Assembly: GCF_054482595.1 (NCBI RefSeq)
Contig: NZ_CM137008.1
DNA: 64,000 nt
Direction: 5' to 3' (one strand)
Part shown: positions 1,666 to 59,094 of the stretch, piece by piece
How the letters are laid out: each line of letters begins with the position of its first letter
Position numbering within the stretch: position 1 is the stretch's first letter
Translations under genes and position numbers: made by a program
The notes under the pieces: generated by a model
Databases searched by the model: none
What the model was told of the DNA's origin: nothing
The model's input: the letters and a program-made list of their open reading frames with translations, nothing else

Positions 1666-3612
1666 ATGAAAACAAATATAAAAGTATTTACATCGACAGG
1701 TGAATTGACCACTCTTGGCCGTGAACTGGGCAAAGGTGGTGAAGGCGCGGTTTATGATATCGAGGAGTTTGTCGATAGCGTCGCCAAGATTTATCACACG
1801 CCGCCACCCGCCTTAAAACAGGACAAACTTGCCTTTATGGCTGCGACAGCTGACGCGCAGTTGTTGAATTATGTCGCCTGGCCGCAGGCAACGCTTCACG
1901 GTGGACGAGGCGGAAAAGTTATCGGTTTTATGATGCCAAAAGTTTCTGGTAAAGAACCGATTCATATGATCTATAGCCCGGCACATCGTCGCCAGAGTTA
2001 CCCTCATTGTGCGTGGGATTTTCTACTCTATGTTGCGCGCAATATTGCTTCATCTTTTGCTACGGTTCACGAGCACGGGCACGTCGTGGGTGACGTAAAC
2101 CAGAACAGTTTTATGGTAGGTCGCGACAGCAAAGTGGTACTGATTGATAGCGACTCCTTTCAGATTAACGCCAATGGCACACTGCATTTATGCGAAGTCG
2201 GCGTGTCGCATTTTACGCCGCCAGAGCTACAAACCTTGTCGTCATTTGTCGGCTTTGAACGCACAGAAAATCACGATAATTTTGGCCTTGCGTTGCTGAT
2301 TTTTCACGTCTTGTTTGGTGGCCGGCATCCTTATTCTGGTGTGCCGCTTATCTCTGATGCGGGTAATGCGCTGGAGACGGATATTACCCATTTCCGTTAT
2401 GCCTACGCGTCAGATAATCAGCGACGTGGTTTAAAACCGCCGCCACGATCGATTCCGCTATCGATGTTACCGAGTGATGTTGAAGCCATGTTTCAGCAGG
2501 CATTCACGGAAAGTGGCGTGGCAACCGGGCGTCCGACGGCTAAAGCGTGGGTAGCGGCACTTGATTCTCTGCGCCAACAGTTAAAGAAATGTCCCGTTTC
2601 GGCAATGCATGTTTATCCCGCTCATTTGACCGACTGCCCGTGGTGTGCGCTGGATAATCAAGGCGTTATCTATTTTATTGATCTCGGCGAAGAGGTCATT
2701 ACCACCAGCGGTGATTTTGTGCTGGCGAAAGTCTGGGCGATGGTGATGGCGTCAGTAGCACCGCCAGCATTGCAATTGCCATTACCCGATCATTTCCAAC
2801 CGACTGGCAGGCCGCTTCCTTTAGGCCTGTTACGGCGCGAATACATCATTCTGATTGAGATCGCACTGTCAGCGTTATCGCTGTTGCTTTGCGGCCTTCA
2901 GGCAGAACCGCGTTATATTATTTTGGTTCCTGTGCTGTCGGCTATCTGGATTATTGGCAGTCTGACAAGCAAAGCGTACAAAGCAGAAGTTCAGCAACGC
3001 CGTGAGGCATTTAATCGCGCGAAAATGGACTATGACCATTTAGTCAGCCAGATCCAACAGTTGGGCGGGCTGGAAGGTTTTATCGCCAAACGGACGATGC
3101 TCGAAAAAATGAAGGACGAAATGCTCGGGTTACCGGAAGAAGAAAAACGTGCTCTGGCAGCACTTCACGACACCGCAAGGGAACGGCAGAAGCAGAAGTT
3201 TCTGGAGGGATTTTTTATTGATGTTGCCTCTATTCCCGGCGTTGGCCCTGCGCGTAAAGCGGCGTTACGGTCCTTTGGTATTGAAACAGCAGCGGATGTT
3301 ACCCGTCGTGGGGTTAAGCAAGTGAAAGGGTTTGGTGATCATCTGACCCAGGCAGTTATCGACTGGAAAGCAAGTTGCGAACGCCGTTTTGTGTTCAGGC
3401 CGAATGAAGCGGTAACGCCAGCAGACAGACAAGCGGTAATGGCGAAAATGACCGCCAAACGACATCGGCTGGAATCGACGTTGACTGTCGGCGCGACAGA
3501 GTTGCAGCGATTCCGCCTTCATGCTCCAGCACGGACCATGCCGTTGATGGAACCGTTACGTCAGGCGGCAGAAAAACTGACTCAGGCGCAGGCTGATTTA
3601 AGCCGCTGCTGA
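1666..3612 (+). CDS. yegI: Ser/Thr protein kinase-like protein with two predicted TM helices and C-terminal helix-hairpin-helix
   Basis: 648-aa ORF; kinase-like N-terminal region (GKGGEGAVY glycine loop, HGHVVGDVN catalytic-loop-like); hydrophobic segments ~2836-2970; HhH-like IPGVGPARKAALRSFGIETAADV. Confidence 0.9.
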   Translation: MKTNIKVFTSTGELTTLGRELGKGGEGAVYDIEEFVDSVAKIYHTPPPALKQDKLAFMAATADAQLLNYVAWPQATLHGGRGGKVIGFMMPKVSGKEPIHMIYSPAHRRQSYPHCAWDFLLYVARNIASSFATVHEHGHVVGDVNQNSFMVGRDSKVVLIDSDSFQINANGTLHLCEVGVSHFTPPELQTLSSFVGFERTENHDNFGLALLIFHVLFGGRHPYSGVPLISDAGNALETDITHFRYAYASDNQRRGLKPPPRSIPLSMLPSDVEAMFQQAFTESGVATGRPTAKAWVAALDSLRQQLKKCPVSAMHVYPAHLTDCPWCALDNQGVIYFIDLGEEVITTSGDFVLAKVWAMVMASVAPPALQLPLPDHFQPTGRPLPLGLLRREYIILIEIALSALSLLLCGLQAEPRYIILVPVLSAIWIIGSLTSKAYKAEVQQRREAFNRAKMDYDHLVSQIQQLGGLEGFIAKRTMLEKMKDEMLGLPEEEKRALAALHDTARERQKQKFLEGFFIDVASIPGVGPARKAALRSFGIETAADVTRRGVKQVKGFGDHLTQAVIDWKASCERRFVFRPNEAVTPADRQAVMAKMTAKRHRLESTLTVGATELQRFRLHAPARTMPLMEPLRQAAEKLTQAQADLSRC

Positions 3613-3623
3613 GCCATTTTCTT

Positions 3624-4976
3624 TTAACGAAATACCACTTCTGCCCAGCGTGCCAGCCCGGCGGTGACGGAGCCAAAGTCATCGCCGCCTGCAATCGGAA
3701 TGCCCGGCAACTGTTCTGCCAGCGCTTTTTTAATCAGCGGCGAACGGGCGCTACCGCCGGTCAGGTAGATAACGTCCGGTTTTTCCTGGGCGTTATCCAG
3801 CGCCAGTTGCACCTGTTCCAGAATCCGCGCCAGTGGCTGGCTGAGGGCGCTTTCCAGCCCTTGCTGGCTAATCAGCGTAGCCAGTTCATCGCTGATAAAC
3901 GGCAGTGAGGCGCGGGTTTCCGCAGTGCTTGAAAGGGCGATTTTGCTCTCTTCTGCGCTACGCACCAGGCGATAGCTTAAACGCTGACGCCAGACTTTCT
4001 GTAACAGGGCCACTTTTTCCGGTTCGCGGGCATCGCGTACCAGATCGTTAAGCAGACGACCGTTGGCACTACTGTAGAAATCACTCTGTGCAGGAACGTC
4101 GTTGATGGCAACCGCATTCCACCACGGCAGAATCGGCAGGGCGATGCCTTTTTCGGTTTCGCCACCCATGCCCAGTAACGGCATCAGGTTTTTAAACGCC
4201 AGCGCGATATCCAGATCGTTACCGCCAATACGGCAACCACTGTGACCCAGCAGGCTGGCTTCACGATCGAGACGCGAACGCCACTGCGGCCCCATCAGCA
4301 GCAATGAACAGTCAGTCGTACCACCGCCGATATCCACCACCAGCACCCGTTTTTCTTCCTGCAAGGTGGCTTCGTAATCCAGCCCAGCCGCGACCGGCTC
4401 GTACTGGAATACCACGTCCCTGAATCCGGCACGCTTCGCCGCGCGTTCCAGAATCCCTTGCGCCTGGGTGTTTGCTTCATCACCGCCCAGCCCCTGGAAG
4501 TTGATCGGACGACCAATCACCGCCTGAGTAATCGCTTCTGGCAGCTGTGCCTGCGCCTGCTGGCGAATGTGCAACATCATTGCGCAGACCAGATCCTCAA
4601 ACAGCGCTACCTGCTGCGGTTTTAAGCCGCTGGCACCGAGGAACGATTTTGGTGATTTCACAAACCACACTTCTTCTGGATCATCAATGTACTGTGCCAG
4701 TGAGGAAAGACCGAACTGCACGCTTTTCGCCGTAACATCGATATCTTCTTCGCGGTTATAACGAATCGCCCGACGTAACAGCGCCTGCGTTTCATCGTCG
4801 TCTGCCGGAACATCATGATGGCGGTACAGCCATTCGCTTACCGCTTCACGCGTTGGCGCGCAAAGCATTGAAGGCAGCAGCGTGCTGTCGTTTTCCATTT
4901 TTAGCAAATGCGGTTTACCGTCACGCATGACCGCCACTGAACAGTTTGCTGTACCGTAATCAAAACCAATAAACAC
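3624..4976 (-). CDS. yegD: Hsp70-family (actin-like ATPase) chaperone YegD
   Basis: 450-aa ORF, N-terminal FIGFDYGTANCSVAV phosphate-1 motif of Hsp70/actin fold. Confidence 0.9.
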   Translation of the reverse strand: MFIGFDYGTANCSVAVMRDGKPHLLKMENDSTLLPSMLCAPTREAVSEWLYRHHDVPADDDETQALLRRAIRYNREEDIDVTAKSVQFGLSSLAQYIDDPEEVWFVKSPKSFLGASGLKPQQVALFEDLVCAMMLHIRQQAQAQLPEAITQAVIGRPINFQGLGGDEANTQAQGILERAAKRAGFRDVVFQYEPVAAGLDYEATLQEEKRVLVVDIGGGTTDCSLLLMGPQWRSRLDREASLLGHSGCRIGGNDLDIALAFKNLMPLLGMGGETEKGIALPILPWWNAVAINDVPAQSDFYSSANGRLLNDLVRDAREPEKVALLQKVWRQRLSYRLVRSAEESKIALSSTAETRASLPFISDELATLISQQGLESALSQPLARILEQVQLALDNAQEKPDVIYLTGGSARSPLIKKALAEQLPGIPIAGGDDFGSVTAGLARWAEVVFR

Positions 4977-6066: not shown

Positions 6067-9000
6067 TCAGTTAATCGCGAAATAACTACTATTCACCAGC
6101 AAATCCAGCGGTTGGGCATCGGCAATCACATCACCATAAATCAGATCGACGCCGATGCCAGAAAGCGTATCCATCACTAAGGGTAAAACGACTGGCCCGG
6201 CGATGGTTTTCATCCCGAGTCGCTGAGCGTGCCCCTGAATAATCGTAATCAGCATCTCATCCATCAAATTACCCTGCACGTTGGCGCATAACTCACCATC
6301 AAGTAGCAGGTAATCTGCCATATTCGCTTTCAGCGAGTTGAAGATTTGCAGATCGCGGCCCACCTGGCTGAGTATTATCCGACATCCCGCCAGCCGCAGT
6401 TTTTGCACGCTTTCTGCGTGATCTAAAATCGCTTCAGCCGGAATAATCAGATGTAATAACCGTGGTGGTAGAGGGCTATTTTCCAGCTGCTCAAGCAGAT
6501 CATTCACCAGCGTGGCGCTACTCAAACCGGCAACGGAAAGGGGGAGGGCGATGCTTATGCCTTTACTGGCAACCGCTTTTGCGGCCTGCTGGAAAAATTC
6601 GTGGAATACCCGGCGGTCAAAAGCATGGCTAAGCGCCGGATCGCTGAAGCTACGACGAAATGTTTGTTCATCAATAATCTCGCCTTCGCAACTCCAGAGC
6701 TTAAGTGAAATCAGCCACAAATTACGCGCTTCCGGGATCCGTGGCGAAGCGACACCGTGGGCCATCATCATCAACTGATTCTCTTTAATCATCCGCCACT
6801 GTTCATCAAGCGACATCGCCGCCCGTTCGCTATGTGCGGCAGCTTGCTGCGGTTCGTAAACCGTCACCCGGCCCCGGCCACCATTTTTGGAGGCATAACA
6901 GGCGATATCAGCCTGCGACATCACTTCTGCCGCCTGATGATTGTTGTCATCGATCAAGGTAATCCCGGCGCTGGCACCTACCCGATGTACACGTCCTTCC
7001 CAGATAAAGTGATAGTCATTCACAGCACTGATAATACGTGTAGCGATAAAACGCGCACTTTCGACATTGCAGTCTGGCAGCAGCAGACCAAATTCATCAC
7101 CGCCGAGCCGCGCCAGCACGTCGCTGGAGCGCAGCATGCTCAGCATCAACGACGCCAGTTCGCGCAGCAAAGCGTCGCCAGCGGCATGCCCGGCGCTGTC
7201 ATTCACCGCTTTAAAGCGATCAAGATCGATAAACACCAGTGCATGTCGCTGATGCGTACTGTTTACCGTTTGCAGCAGGATACGCAGTTGTTTCTCAAAA
7301 CTGGCGCGGTTGGCGAGATGCGTCAGTGCATCATGGGAGGCGCTGTAGCTCAGCTGGCGCAGCATTTTGCGTGATTCGGTAACGTCCTGAATCACCAGAA
7401 CCGAACCAATATTGCTGCCGTCCAGAGTACTTAACGGCGTAATACTGTAATGCACGTCGTAACTGCCGCCGCTCCGACAGTGCAACACCACATCTTGTTC
7501 GATCGCGGAACGTGAGGTGTCGGCACTGTAAATGTTCTCCATTAATGGTCCGTTGTCGCCAAAAGTAATATGCAACACCGTCAGGAGCGGAACACCTAAC
7601 GCTTCTTCCTGCGTCCAGCCGCTCATCTTCTCCGCCACTGGATTCATAAAGGTAATTTTCATCGCCATATCAATACAGACCACGGCTTCGCCGATGGAGT
7701 CCAGCGTAATGTGCAGGCGCTCTTTTTCCTGAAACAATGCCTCGTTAAGCTGTTTAACCTCGGTCATATCCATATTAATGCCGAGCAGGCGTTCGACTTC
7801 GCCTTCTTTATTCAGTACCCGGTTGGCGAGGGCGCGGATATGGCGGATGCCATCTTTCACGGCAATGCGAAATTCCAGCTTAAAGGGCGAGCGTGATTGC
7901 AACGAATCACGAATCACTTTTTCGGCATGCTGGCGATCTTCCGGCAGCACGCACTCGTACCACACCTGCCAGTTCGGTTTGATATGCGGAGGAATTTCAT
8001 ACAGCTCGAACATCCGCTTATCCCAGCTAAAAATATTCGGCTTCAACTCCCACTCCCAGATGCCAATCCCGCCCGCTTCGTTAGCCAGCGTGATGCGTTC
8101 CATCAGTTGCTGATTCACCTGTTCGGTGCGTTTTAGCTCGTTAATGTCTTCAATCTGAGCGATAAAATAGAGCGGCGTGCCATCCGTGTGGCGCACCAGT
8201 GAGACGGCAAGCAACGCCCAGACAACATCGCCATTACGGTTGTAGTAGCGTTTTTCCATTGAATAGGTGTTTATTTCACCGCTTATCAGCTTTTCAACCT
8301 GTTGGAGATCTTTATTGAGATCCTCCGGCCAGGTCAGTTGCTGAAAGGTGAGTCCGCGCAGCTCTTCCTGACTGTAACCGAGAAACTGGCAGAGTGCTTT
8401 GTTGGATTGCAGCCATTGTCCCTCGGTGCCCACTAATGCCATGCCGATGGCGGAATATTCCATGGCGTTCCGAAAGCGGGTTTCGCTTTCGGAAATGTGT
8501 TTGCGTTCCGCACGAAAGGCATACATCACCATGGTCATGATGTTGGCGGGCAGCAGGATCAGCAAAAACGGTAGCCACGGCATATGGGTCATCAGGTACG
8601 TACGCGGCGTAGCAAGCAGGGAGGGATCCGCGGCCATCATCAGCGACACCATCATCACCGTGGTAAGGAAGATCAAAAAGGCTTCCATTCGTGGCAGGCG
8701 CACGGCGCTCCACATCAACAGCACAATAATGAAAGTAAAAGGCCACGGCAGATACAGCATCGAAAGCCAGCTTAACGTCAGTGTGATGGCTAACGTAAGC
8801 AGCGACTCAAAAAGCAATCGTGGGTTGCGATGGCGCAGCAGATAGTGTGGTTTAAATAACAATCCCAGCGGCACCAGTGCCAGAGCGCCGATGGATTCTG
8901 ACAGTACCCATATCAAAAATGCCCTGAGAGGATCGTCTCCGGGCGTCAGCAGGACAACCAGAACACCCCCCAACAGAGGCGGAACAATGGCGCTGCCGAG

Positions 9001-11037: not shown

Positions 11038-12891
11038 ATGAGACGATTTCTGACGACGCTGATGATACTCCTGGTCGTGCTGGTGGCCGGGTTATCTGCG
11101 TTAGTGTTGCTGGTGAATCCGAATGATTTCCGCGACTATATGGTCAAGCAAGTTGCTGCACGTAGCGGTTATCAATTGCAGCTCGACGGGCCACTGCGTT
11201 GGCACGTCTGGCCGCAGCTTAGTATCCTCTCCGGGCGAATGTCTCTCACCGCCCAGGGCGCAAGCCAGCCACTGGTTCGCGCCGACAACATGCGTCTGGA
11301 CGTGGCGCTTTTACCACTACTGAGTCATCAACTGAGCGTTAAGCAGGTGATGCTAAAAGGGGCAGTGATCCAACTGACGCCGCAGACGGAAGCGGTGCGC
11401 AGTGAAGACGCTCCGGTTGCACCGCGCGACAATACCTTGCCGGATCTGTCAGACGATCGCGGATGGTCGTTTGATATATCCAGTCTTAAGGTGGCGGACA
11501 GCGTGCTGGTGTTCCAGCATGAAGATGACGAGCAGGTGACAATCCGCAATATTCGCCTGCAAATGGAACAAGATCCCCAACATCGTGGTTCATTTGAGTT
11601 CTCCGGGCGGGTTAATCGCGATCAGCGCGATCTCACGATATCCCTTAACGGTACGGTAGATGCTTCTGATTATCCGCATGATTTAACGGCGGCTATTGAA
11701 CAAATTAACTGGCAGTTGCAGGGTGCCGATTTACCAAAACAAGGTATTCAGGGGCAGGGGAGTTTCCAGGCCCAGTGGCAGGAGTCACATAAACGCCTTT
11801 CATTTAACCAAATTAGTTTGACCGCCAATGATAGTACGCTAAGCGGGCAAGCACAGGTTACGCTGACAGAGAAACCGGAATGGCAGCTGAGGCTGCAATT
11901 CCCGCAACTGAATCTTGACAACCTCATCCCGCTTAATGAAACCGCGAATGGTGAAAACGGTGCCGCGCAGCAGGGGCAGAGCCAATCAACGTTGCCGCGC
12001 CCGGTCATTTCTTCGCGTATTGATGAACCGGCCTATCAGGGACTGCAAGGCTTTACGGCTGATATTTTGTTGCAGGCCAGTAACGTGCGCTGGCGCGGAA
12101 TGAATTTTACAGATGTTGCCACGCAAATGACCAACAAGTCGGGTTTGCTGGAAATTACTCAACTGCAGGGCAAACTTAACGGTGGACAGGTTTCACTGCC
12201 GGGCACGCTGGACGCGACATCAATAAATCCGCGGATAAACTTCCAGCCACGGCTGGAAAACGTTGAGATTGGTACCATTCTGAAGGCGTTTAACTATCCG
12301 ATTTCGTTGACCGGAAAAATGTCACTGGCTGGTGATTTCTCCGGTGCTGACATAGATGCCGACGCATTCCGCCACAACTGGCAAGGACAGGCACATGTCG
12401 AAATGACCGACACGCGCATGGAAGGGATGAACTTCCAGCAGATGATTCAGCAAGCGGTAGAGCGTAATGGCGGTGATGTGAAGGCCGCTGAAAACTTTGA
12501 TAACGTGACGCGGCTTGACCGCTTTACCACCGATTTGACGTTGAAGGATGGCGTCGTGACGTTAAACGACATGCAAGGTCAATCGCCTGTGCTGGCGCTG
12601 ACAGGGGAAGGCATGTTGAATCTGGCAGATCAAACCTGCGACACCCAGTTTGATATTCGGGTCGTGGGTGGCTGGAACGGGGAAAGCAAACTGATTGATT
12701 TCCTGAAAGAAACGCCAGTACCGCTGCGGGTTTATGGCAACTGGCAGCAACTCAATTACAGCCTGCAAGTGGATCAGTTACTGCGCAAACATCTACAGGA
12801 CGAAGCGAAACGTCGCCTGAATGACTGGGCCGAGCGGAATAAAGATTCCCGTAATGGCAAAGATGTGAAGAAGTTGCTGGAGAAGATGTAG
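11038..12891 (+). CDS. asmA: Outer-membrane assembly protein AsmA
   Basis: 617-aa ORF with N-terminal membrane anchor; K-12 asmA follows dcd. Confidence 0.9.
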   Translation: MRRFLTTLMILLVVLVAGLSALVLLVNPNDFRDYMVKQVAARSGYQLQLDGPLRWHVWPQLSILSGRMSLTAQGASQPLVRADNMRLDVALLPLLSHQLSVKQVMLKGAVIQLTPQTEAVRSEDAPVAPRDNTLPDLSDDRGWSFDISSLKVADSVLVFQHEDDEQVTIRNIRLQMEQDPQHRGSFEFSGRVNRDQRDLTISLNGTVDASDYPHDLTAAIEQINWQLQGADLPKQGIQGQGSFQAQWQESHKRLSFNQISLTANDSTLSGQAQVTLTEKPEWQLRLQFPQLNLDNLIPLNETANGENGAAQQGQSQSTLPRPVISSRIDEPAYQGLQGFTADILLQASNVRWRGMNFTDVATQMTNKSGLLEITQLQGKLNGGQVSLPGTLDATSINPRINFQPRLENVEIGTILKAFNYPISLTGKMSLAGDFSGADIDADAFRHNWQGQAHVEMTDTRMEGMNFQQMIQQAVERNGGDVKAAENFDNVTRLDRFTTDLTLKDGVVTLNDMQGQSPVLALTGEGMLNLADQTCDTQFDIRVVGGWNGESKLIDFLKETPVPLRVYGNWQQLNYSLQVDQLLRKHLQDEAKRRLNDWAERNKDSRNGKDVKKLLEKM

Positions 12892-12911
12892 GTTACCAGG
12901 TGACCAGTCCT

Positions 12912-12948
12912 GTAGGCCTGATAAGACGCGTAAAGCGTCGCATCAGGC
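12912..12948. repeat. REP element downstream of asmA
   Basis: gtaggcctgataagacgcg...cgtcgcatcaggc. Confidence 0.7.
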
Positions 12949-13164
12949 GTTCGTGGCGGCATCATTATATTCTGAATATGTAAGATCGAAGGCTGTTCCG
13001 TTCACTTGATGTTCCTCGCTACTATGGAACGCTCAAGCCGGTGAACGTGCCAGGGTGGCTCAATCTCCACCACCCTGGCAACCCGGGCTCCCGGCGGTAA
13101 ATCGCCGATGGCGCGGTTCCCTCATCTTATTCCTTTCGGCTATTGGGTAAAATGACCGATACCA

Positions 13165-14748
13165 TCACACCTCGTACTCCATCTCGCCATCCTTACGCAG
13201 CGGTATAATCTGCACCTTCTGCACGCGATGGCTTTCTACCTGCAACGTTTTAAGCAAATAATCCCCCACCTGAACTTCTTCGCCAGGTTTTGGAATACGC
13301 TGCAAATACTCCATCAACAGCCCGGCAATGGTGTGATATTCACGTTTTTCATCCAGCGGCAGCGGCACATATTGCACCAGATCCTCCAGCGGCATATGAC
13401 CATTCGCCGTCCAGGAACCGTCCGCATTCTTCTGAATATCATGGCGGGCGTCGATCTCTTCCACTTCGTTCGGTAAGTTACCGGCAATGGTTTCAGTGAC
13501 GTCACTTAATGTCACAATCCCTTCCACCGAGCCAAACTCATCCACCACAAAAGCAAAGTGCGTGCGGGCATTACGGAACTGCTCCAGGGCAGGTAACAAC
13601 GGCAAGGTTTCCGGGAACACCAGCGGCTGGCGAATCAACACCCGCAGGTTGAGCGGTTCGCCGCGCAGAGACTGTTGTAGCAGGTCGATAACGTGAACAA
13701 CACCGAGCAAATCTTCTGCGTCATCACCGTCGGTAACCACCAGCCGCGTATGCTGATTTCGCTCCAGCAACTGGCGGATTTCTTCTTCCGGCGCGTTGAG
13801 ATCGATATGCTCAATATCGTGGCGCGACGTCATAATGCTGCTGACGGTACGCTGGTTAAGATTAAGTACCCGCTCAATCATCCGCCGTTCCTGCGGATTA
13901 AAGATCTGCTGGTTACCATGATCCACCAGCATGGACGCGGTTTCGGCGTCCAGTTCCGCATCTTCTTTTTGCCCGCTAAGCAGGCGCATTACCGCTTCGG
14001 TAGTCCGCTGGCGCAGCGTCTGGTTAGCGGAAAGAAAACGTCGCCGGTTAAAGATAGCCAACTGATTGAGCGCCTCGATCATCACCGAGAAACCAATGGC
14101 AGCGTACAGGTAGCCTTTCGGAATGACGAAGCCGAAACCTTCTGCCACCAGGCTAAAGCCAATCATCAACAGGAAGCTTAAGCAGAGAATAACGATGGTC
14201 GGGTGACTGTTAACAAATTGCGTTAACGGCTTGCTGGCCATCAACATCAGGCTGATAGCGATAACCACGGCGGCCATCATGACCAGTAAATGGTCGACCA
14301 TCCCGACGGCGGTAATCACTGAGTCGAGTGAGAAAATGGCGTCCAGTACCACAATTTGCGTCACCACGCCCCAGAACTTCGCACCTTTGCGTTGTGTGGG
14401 ATTATTGCTGTCTTTCCCTTCCAGCCGTTCGTTCAGCTCCATCGTGGCTTTGAACAACAGGAAGAAACCACCAAACAGCATGATTAAGTCGCGGGCGCTA
14501 AAGGTAAACGAGCGGAAGCTGAACAGCGGTTGAGTCAGGGTGACCAGCCAGGAGATTGACGCCAGCAGTAACAGGCGCATTAACATTGCCAGCAGCAGCC
14601 CGGTAACCCGTGCGCGGTCACGCTGCTTCGGCGGTAGTTTTTCGGCGAGGATGGCAATAAAGACCAGGTTATCAATGCCGAGGACCAGTTCGATCACAAT
14701 CAGCGTGATTAACCCGGCCCAGATAGACGGATCGGCAATCCATTCCAT
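13165..14748 (-). CDS. yegH: TerC-family membrane protein with CBS and CorC domains (YegH)
   Basis: 527 aa from ATG at 14748 ([10 protein letters not shown]); the track ORF extends to a TTG at 14814. Confidence 0.85.
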
Positions 14749-59006: not shown

Positions 59007-59061
59007 TTTCTTATTCCTCTTTAAACCTGTCTGAACCGTTATCAACCGCGCAATAAAAAAG

Positions 59062-59094
59062 CCCCCGGAAGGTGATCTTCCGGGGGCTTTCTCA
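59062..59094 (-). terminator. his attenuator terminator hairpin
   Basis: Minus strand reads agcccccggaag-atcac-cttccgggggct followed by UUUUUAUU, between hisL and hisG. Confidence 0.85.

Follow-up and report, generated by a model that had tools for sequence, protein, structure and literature searches.

The closest described relatives of the element reported here carry two names in the literature. TRIP1 is a structured repeat of ~265 nt that is found in the Enterobacteriaceae (Rudd 1999; Li et al. 2024, PMC10888264), and the Replication Risk Sequence (RRS) was described by the Cox and Goodman laboratories (Pham et al. 2023, 2024; PMC10287960, PMC10592627); TRIP1a (lysO) and TRIP1c (dusC) are the elements called RRS in the latter work (PMC10287960, PMC10592627). 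Five TRIP1 loci and two RRS are named in the literature. The published RRS G-quadruplex is GGGGGTGCAGGGGGCGGCGG, and at dusC the G-quadruplex strand is the lagging-strand template (PMC10287960, PMC10592627). Prominent RecA/SSB gap peaks were reported at only two sites genome-wide, lysO and dusC, and cells in which both RRS are deleted survive only via a 2-3-fold amplification of the 200-kb insH7-insH8 segment, MG1655 2,102,912-2,288,976 (PMC10287960, PMC10592627). In a 2026 replisome study the complementary RRS strand, which is without the G-quadruplex, blocked about 66% of encounters in vitro via its secondary structure.

Two further systems are relevant. Dar and Sorek (2018) observed that Rho-terminated transcripts have precise ends just past stable stem-loops without U-tracts, and that such stem-loops protect against PNPase and RNase II, with rut sites just beyond. 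The structured RNA TwoAYGGAY was predicted in 2015 to bind CsrA.

The gap between the convergent genes asmA and yegH of Escherichia coli K-12 contains a new, previously unlisted, truncated member of the TRIP1/RRS family, one helix of which (P2) is a perfect hairpin. The element shares with TRIP1 and RRS homologous sequence (78-87% identity), the same helices, a high GC content and an intergenic position downstream of genes, and the asmA-yegH locus shows the in-place inversion and recombination described for TRIP1. In contrast, asmA-yegH is not one of the five TRIP1 or two RRS sites already named, with neither the TRIP1 group (PMC10888264) nor the RRS group (PMC10287960, PMC10592627) mentioning asmA or yegH, and the K-12 copy retains 154 of ~270 nt, is without strong G-runs and presumably has its G-rich strand as the leading-strand template. 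Like the REP/BIME elements that stabilise mRNA 3' ends, P2 is a repeat-derived intergenic hairpin at mRNA 3' ends between convergent genes, but it derives from an unrelated sequence family and lies 100 nt away from a genuine REP. P2 also resembles the Rho-dependent 3'-end protective stem-loops: it is stable without a U-tract, RNA ends precisely a few nucleotides past it, and on the asmA-sense strand a Rho-dependent, C-rich region follows; it differs from them in that a single palindromic, repeat-derived hairpin serves both convergent transcripts, and its protective action is one that we infer.

The hairpin in the asmA-yegH gap

The window, that is, the whole stretch of 64,000 nucleotides analysed, is identical to E. 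coli K-12 sequence, and the gap at 12892-13164 corresponds to MG1655 2,139,486-2,139,758, where the curated MG1655 record holds no annotated feature. The locus is made up as follows.

11038-12891, plus strand: asmA coding sequence, from the list of open reading frames and the RefSeq annotation of the identical DNA; the transcript extends into the gap
13165-14748, minus strand: yegH coding sequence (TerC family), from the same two sources; the transcript enters the gap from the opposite side
12916-12948, no strand assigned: REP element distinct from the hairpin, recognised as an inverted repeat and a sub-threshold naRNA4/REP match (Rfam)
13048-13080, no strand assigned: helix P2, whose perfect stem of 11 bp encloses a loop of 11 nt (13059-13069)

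The original prediction had placed a 10-bp perfect inverted repeat with a 12-nt loop at 13069-13100, in the convergent asmA-yegH gap and apart from the REP. The convergent setting and the separation from the REP are borne out by these coordinates, and the quoted arms are present and perfect, but their true site lies ~20 bases further left. The 10-bp core (GCCAGGGTGG and CCACCCTGGC) is found at 13049-13058 and 13070-13079 and belongs to a full stem of 11 bp, the arms of which, TGCCAGGGTGG at 13048-13058 and CCACCCTGGCA at 13070-13080, are 100% complementary. The core encloses a loop of 11 nt, and a search pattern with a 12-N loop finds nothing. On the minus strand, an extra G.U pair gives a 12-bp stem with a 9-nt loop. 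With free energies of -23 and -24 kcal/mol for the two strands as RNA, and -13.6 as DNA, P2 is the strongest structure in the present-day K-12 gap. As had been stated, no T-run adjoins it: the stem is followed by ACCCGGGC on one strand and by CGTTCACC on the other, neither of which is the U-run that follows the GC-rich stem of an intrinsic terminator, and a terminator scan of both strands returned none.

Within the gap, REP-like matches are limited to 12915-12987, and a test for the REP consensus palindrome was negative for the hairpin. An Rfam scan of the gap produced sub-threshold REP/naRNA4 matches only and left the hairpin unmatched; a promoter scan of the gap found none, and a search of a phage collection gave no match. 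Folding of the gap as a whole is much more stable than that of shuffled controls, with z of -4.8 and -5.0 for the two strands, and the hairpin has other helices on either side of it. By themselves, the chance statistics are only suggestive: first-order Markov simulations with the dinucleotide composition of the window predict 0.37 perfect hairpins per 64 kb (stem of at least 11 bp, loop of 3-15 nt), with at least one in 22% of the simulated sequences, and the window holds five. The evidence that P2 is real comes instead from its conservation by compensatory change and from mapped RNA 3' ends. The four other perfect hairpins of this kind (949-978, 8468-8494, 59058-59090 and 63760-63785), which bring the total well above the 0.37 expected, are probably terminators.

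A truncated TRIP1/RRS copy and the fold of its family

The hairpin is not autonomous but belongs, as one of several helices, to a truncated copy of TRIP1/RRS, a point that the original prediction missed. A family profile of 45 members, from which every asmA-yegH-type copy had been excluded, was run against the 64-kb window with nhmmer and gave one match only, from 13147 to 12994 on the minus strand (E=3.4e-24, 80 bits, profile positions 116-267 of 269). The matched copy is 78-81% identical to K-12 TRIP1a/c and 98% identical to a long allele of the same gap. Full-length members are defined by a length of 222-273 bp and a 'double-Y' fold, a definition that includes the long allele of other strains and excludes the window copy. 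Both family membership and truncation are established by this comparison, and the parts of the remnant are listed here.

12994-13147, minus strand: truncated TRIP1/RRS-like repeat of 154 bp, from the profile match; on its G-rich strand it comprises the 3' ~57% of the element
12999-13047, no strand assigned: helix P1, with CGTTCAC (12999-13005) paired to GTGAACG (13041-13047) and an inner stem, from the consensus fold
13067-13084, minus strand: G-run segment GGGTTGCCAGGGTGGTGG, the homologue of the RRS G-quadruplex, from mapping of the published sequence onto the alignment
13091-13107, no strand assigned: one half of the long-range helix P3, CCGGCGGTAAATCGCCG, left without its pairing partner by the K-12 deletion; from the consensus structure set against the long allele
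13141-13149, no strand assigned: deletion junction TATTGGGTA, from comparison with the long allele (L004)

In other E. coli strains, the long allele continues after GGCTATCGGGTA with ~178 extra bases that are equally rich in hairpins. In K-12 these ~178 bp, including two GGA-loop hairpins, are missing, the loss having occurred between short TYGGGTA repeats (TCGGGTA and TTGGGTA), and P1 and P2 are both intact in folds of the window. The full-length form is found at asmA-yegH in E. coli and in other Escherichia lineages, in either orientation, and its presence in those other lineages identifies it as ancestral. Among 5,426 complete E. coli genomes, about 2,400 have the deletion junction of K-12; their allele, with 95-100% identity, still has a perfect P2 stem. 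Some 56% of E. coli genomes are without the K-12 junction: the element is full-length in roughly a quarter, and other gaps hold either no element (REP only) or a toxin-antitoxin module, so that the role of P2 in K-12 must be a dispensable one. Two single-base differences also separate K-12 from the long allele, a G to T change in the P2 loop (13066) and a C to A change at 13108; with the latter the small helix P4 loses its closing pair, a minor indication that constraint is relaxed outside P2.

The asmA-yegH gap is a rearrangement hot spot (strain alleles L015, L016, L002 and L003). Its alleles include a REP-only gap of 67 bp (Nissle type), a HigB/HigA-like toxin-antitoxin pair in O157:H7, a toxin-antitoxin remnant accompanied by the element and an IS, and a whole TRIP1-like element inverted between two inverted REPs, a flanking pair that explains the inversion. 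A mobile-element reading, prompted by the presence/absence alleles and by the two orientations, was rejected, as no terminal inverted repeats or target duplications were found. Within the family, an IS110-family element (~1.38 kb, annotated as 'RNA-guided transposase') interrupts the P8 loop of two different TRIP1/RRS copies at the same position, one in the asmA-yegH gap of strain GPEC1352 (L083, 146-1521) and the other between aqpZ and dusC in strain CUVET16-465 (L084, from about 2550 onward). The insertion junction, in which GAGGTAACAT precedes the IS and TCCTGTAAAACG follows it, is present in 174 of the 5,426 E. coli genomes, and the IS110-family element appears to use the P8 loop as a specific target, in the manner of IS621 with REP.

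A sensitive search with the long form revealed a dispersed family that extends to Klebsiella and Citrobacter and has a median of 3 and a maximum of 10 places per E. coli genome. Paralogues are found in the aqpZ/lysO, putP/efeU and dusC/yohP gaps and at proX, the first three being the published TRIP1a, b and c (Rudd 1999; Li et al. 2024, PMC10888264). The proX copy (strain ETEC4071, L005 2499-2769, between proX and an MFS transporter gene) lies outside the five named loci and is 78% identical to the asmA-yegH long allele. TRIP1c/RRS-dusC is found in opposite orientations in the dusC-yohP gaps of K-12 (L012) and O157:H7 (L008), in agreement with the variable direction described by Li et al. 2024 (PMC10888264).

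The fold was examined in a sample of 66 loci, with one genome per species, from which 51-53 full-length copies were aligned (Escherichia, Citrobacter, Trabulsiella and Raoultella). The consensus comprises 76 pairs, in which 96.7% of cells are paired, compared with 87% for shuffled partners and 37-46% for slid partners, and changes on both sides are seen in 32 pairs; such covariation counts overstate the number of independent events because the copies are related, a relatedness that the slid controls share. In P1, double compensatory changes are present in 3 of 7 pairs. P2 is paired in 95% of cells across 51 copies, with double changes in 8 of 12 pairs and a covariation score of 0.54 against 0.23 for shuffled alignments (reached by none of 500 shuffles), and its stem exists in at least six versions across the family, all of them complementary. 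Covariation of the helices is thus established, and the pattern in P2, whose stem sequence changes freely while pairing stays, is that of a folded single strand rather than of a sequence-specific duplex site. Conservation across the Enterobacteriaceae had been suggested as a check on the hairpin; the helix is indeed conserved, as part of a dispersed repeat family and not at the asmA-yegH locus, whose gap varies greatly among E. coli strains.

Also significant is the strand on which pairing is maintained. On the minus strand, the wobble cells comprise 205 G.U and 17 A.C, compared with 40 and 63, respectively, on the plus strand, and the covarying pairs show the series C-G / U.G / U-A. Such one-sided wobble pairing indicates that the fold is selected on one strand, the G-rich strand, which is the yegH-sense strand in the window. 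This asymmetry is equally well explained by folding of single-stranded DNA on the lagging-strand template and by an RNA role.

In TRIP1a/c, the right arm of P2 and the adjoining C-run, read as their reverse complement, give the published G-quadruplex sequence GGGGGTGCAGGGGGCGGCGG, and by this correspondence the window hairpin is homologous to the RRS segment shown to block DNA polymerases. The equivalent window segment, GGGTTGCCAGGGTGGTGG, has a G4Hunter score of 1.0-1.2, compared with 2.3 for GGGGGTGCAGGGGGCGGCGG, and weak G-runs of 3-3-2-2, and does not qualify as an RRS G-quadruplex. Scores of at least 1.5 were obtained for 15 of 51 family copies, all of E. coli type. The P2 hairpin is conserved by compensatory change in all genera sampled, and G-quadruplex potential is not. 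The window copy is inverted relative to RRS-dusC and lies on the same replichore, so its G-rich strand would be the leading-strand template and not, as at dusC, the lagging one.

Outside the part kept in K-12, the right domain of the long allele, read on the G-rich strand, matches the full Rfam model TwoAYGGAY (RF01731) with 31.5 bits (e.g. L004 807-950, minus strand), and TRIP1a scores 30.6 bits, both scores lying below the gathering threshold of 43; the window itself contains no match to this model. In 48 of 52 copies both right-domain hairpin loops read CANGGANG, on the strand favoured by the G.U test, a strikingly conserved motif that resembles CsrA-binding sites and is the CsrA/RsmA recognition consensus. 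The resemblance to TwoAYGGAY thus consists of a G-rich-strand alignment over the full length of the model and of two hairpins with ANGGAY loops; the differences are the sub-threshold score, one element loop that reads AGGGAU or AAGGAC and not AYGGAY, and the deletion of the whole domain in the window. A link between TRIP1/RRS and TwoAYGGAY was not found in the literature searched.

RNA 3' ends, Rho and the competing explanations

Published Term-seq and bicyclomycin data for MG1655 (Adams et al. 2021, PMC7815308) establish the positions of the RNA ends and the Rho dependence of the asmA-sense transcript. Coordinates were converted as window = 2152650 - MG1655, and the conversion was checked against the printed context sequences, which are those of the P2 hairpin.

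13084, plus strand: dominant asmA-sense RNA 3' end, 4 nt past the stem (MG1655 2139566, minus strand; Term-seq, Supplementary file 1)
13043, minus strand: dominant yegH-sense RNA 3' end, 5 nt past the stem (MG1655 2139607, plus strand; Term-seq)
13174, plus strand: peak of the region where Rho terminates asmA-sense RNA, which lies antisense to the 3' end of yegH (MG1655 2139476, minus strand; Supplementary file 2)

Reads at the asmA-sense end, 2139566, number about 42,000 (LB, OD 0.4) and about 32,000 (M63); this end is absent from the curated Term-seq list for LB at OD 2.0 (PMC7815308), while the yegH-sense end at 2139607 has about 2,700-4,200 reads in all three growth conditions (Adams et al. 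2021, PMC7815308). In the bicyclomycin experiment, a Rho score of 7.69 (p=1.1e-18) was obtained at 2139476 on the minus strand, 90 nt past the asmA-sense end, in calls that use 800-nt windows and so do not place the release site precisely (PMC7815308). No Rho region is listed here for the yegH-sense strand (Adams et al. 2021, PMC7815308). The 120 nt that follow the asmA-sense end are C-rich (C/G = 1.48), and P2, as an RNA hairpin of -23 to -24 kcal/mol, sits at the extreme 3' end. Mapping of transcript ends had been proposed as a second check, and dominant MG1655 ends do adjoin the stem on both strands; together with the Rho region just downstream, they support the earlier suggestion of an RNA-processing structure. 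A hairpin that was unconserved and had no transcript ends nearby was to have been discarded, and P2 survives on both counts.

In our assessment the best explanation, to which we assign a probability of about 0.72 as a whole, is that the P2 helix of a decayed TRIP1/RRS copy now acts as a stem-loop without a U-tract that sets the steady-state 3' ends of both convergent transcripts. Ends lying 4-5 nt past a very stable stem on both strands of a convergent pair would also suit a non-canonical bidirectional intrinsic terminator, one that halts RNA polymerase by itself in either direction and needs no U-tract; this is decidedly unlikely, considering that neither side has a U-run and the terminator scan is empty, that bicyclomycin raises asmA-sense read-through and that Dar and Sorek (2018) describe such ends as processed and Rho-dependent. 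The hairpin could, with low but appreciable probability, be a neutral relic, a leftover of the repeat whose RNA ends are an incidental by-product without consequence for the cell. The locus is highly polymorphic, many strains are without the element, and the broken P4 pair and altered P2 loop amount to small decay in K-12; against this stand a P2 stem that is still perfect throughout the common K-12 allele and RNA ends that are dominant and reproducible across conditions. A site for a DNA-binding protein, the other function originally suggested, has a negligible probability: apart from the palindromic symmetry of P2, no data in favour of it were found, and the six stem versions, with pairing kept throughout, point to a folded single strand and away from such a site.

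The homology of the remnant with RRS, in which P2 is the polymerase-blocking segment, also admits a reading as a weak working RRS, whose hairpins in the single-stranded lagging template would stall DNA polymerase and leave a post-replication gap. Both strands of the remnant fold well as single-stranded DNA (z -5.2 and -4.2), and the structure of the RRS C-strand alone blocks encounters in vitro. However, the folding energy of the remnant is -35 kcal/mol compared with -84 kcal/mol for intact RRS (~40% kept), and this low value, the weak G-runs, the leading-template orientation of the G-rich strand and the restriction of the reported prominent RecA/SSB peaks to lysO and dusC make residual RRS activity unlikely, and the reading as a whole very much so. 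The amplified insH7-insH8 segment contains the asmA-yegH remnant (2,139,5xx), which may be a coincidence since the segment was noted for the dusC locus; there is a slender chance that the remnant is a cryptic, weak fourth RRS of K-12, extra copies of which could compensate for the lost canonical RRS. It is similarly improbable, to a high degree, that P2 is part of a functional structured RNA, with TRIP1 a relative of TwoAYGGAY that binds CsrA via two GGA hairpin loops. The full-model match of the long allele, the recurrence of CANGGANG on the G.U-favoured strand and the CsrA binding predicted for TwoAYGGAY speak for such an RNA; both GGA hairpins, however, are lost from the K-12 asmA-yegH copy, the Rfam score falls short of the gathering threshold, Term-seq shows no dominant 3' ends in the canonical copies, dusC and ybjE are not flagged as bound in CsrA CLIP-seq, and between tandem genes the G-rich strand is sense in 11 cases and antisense in 11. 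A CsrA sponge was rejected on the lack of GGA loops in the K-12 copy and the lack of support from Term-seq and CLIP-seq at canonical copies, and a co-transcribed 3'-UTR function for the family on the 11:11 orientation between tandem genes.

Proposed origin of the structure and its significance

The explanation of P2 as the stem-loop that sets both 3' ends can be set out as a sequence of events. The ancestral asmA-yegH locus would have carried a full element of ~270 nt, from which, in the K-12 lineage, slippage between the two TYGGGTA microrepeats would have removed ~178 bp, leaving P1, P2 and orphaned half-helices. The perfect stem of P2 would have been inherited from a family whose helix is selected for single-strand folding of the G-rich strand. 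In present-day cells, RNA polymerase coming from asmA would run past P2 and be stopped by Rho in the C-rich stretch downstream, after which 3'-to-5' exonucleases would trim the asmA-sense RNA back to the foot of the P2 stem; the yegH-side RNA would end likewise on the opposite strand. The trimming and protection step, and the involvement of Rho on the yegH-sense strand, are those parts of the scheme that we infer.

For asmA-yegH, an unannotated gap of the reference E. coli genome is thereby explained, with the asmA and yegH mRNAs acquiring defined 3' ends and a likely mechanism for them; in this respect the role of P2 is a known kind of RNA role. For the repeat family, one locus is added to those already named. 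For the study of RRS, the whole fold is supported by compensatory changes on the G-rich strand and the helix equivalent to P2 is kept across genera, whereas strong potential for the G-quadruplex, the proposed basis of RRS activity, is confined to copies of the E. coli type. This contrast suggests that the ancestral selected property of the family is single-strand hairpin folding rather than the quadruplex itself.
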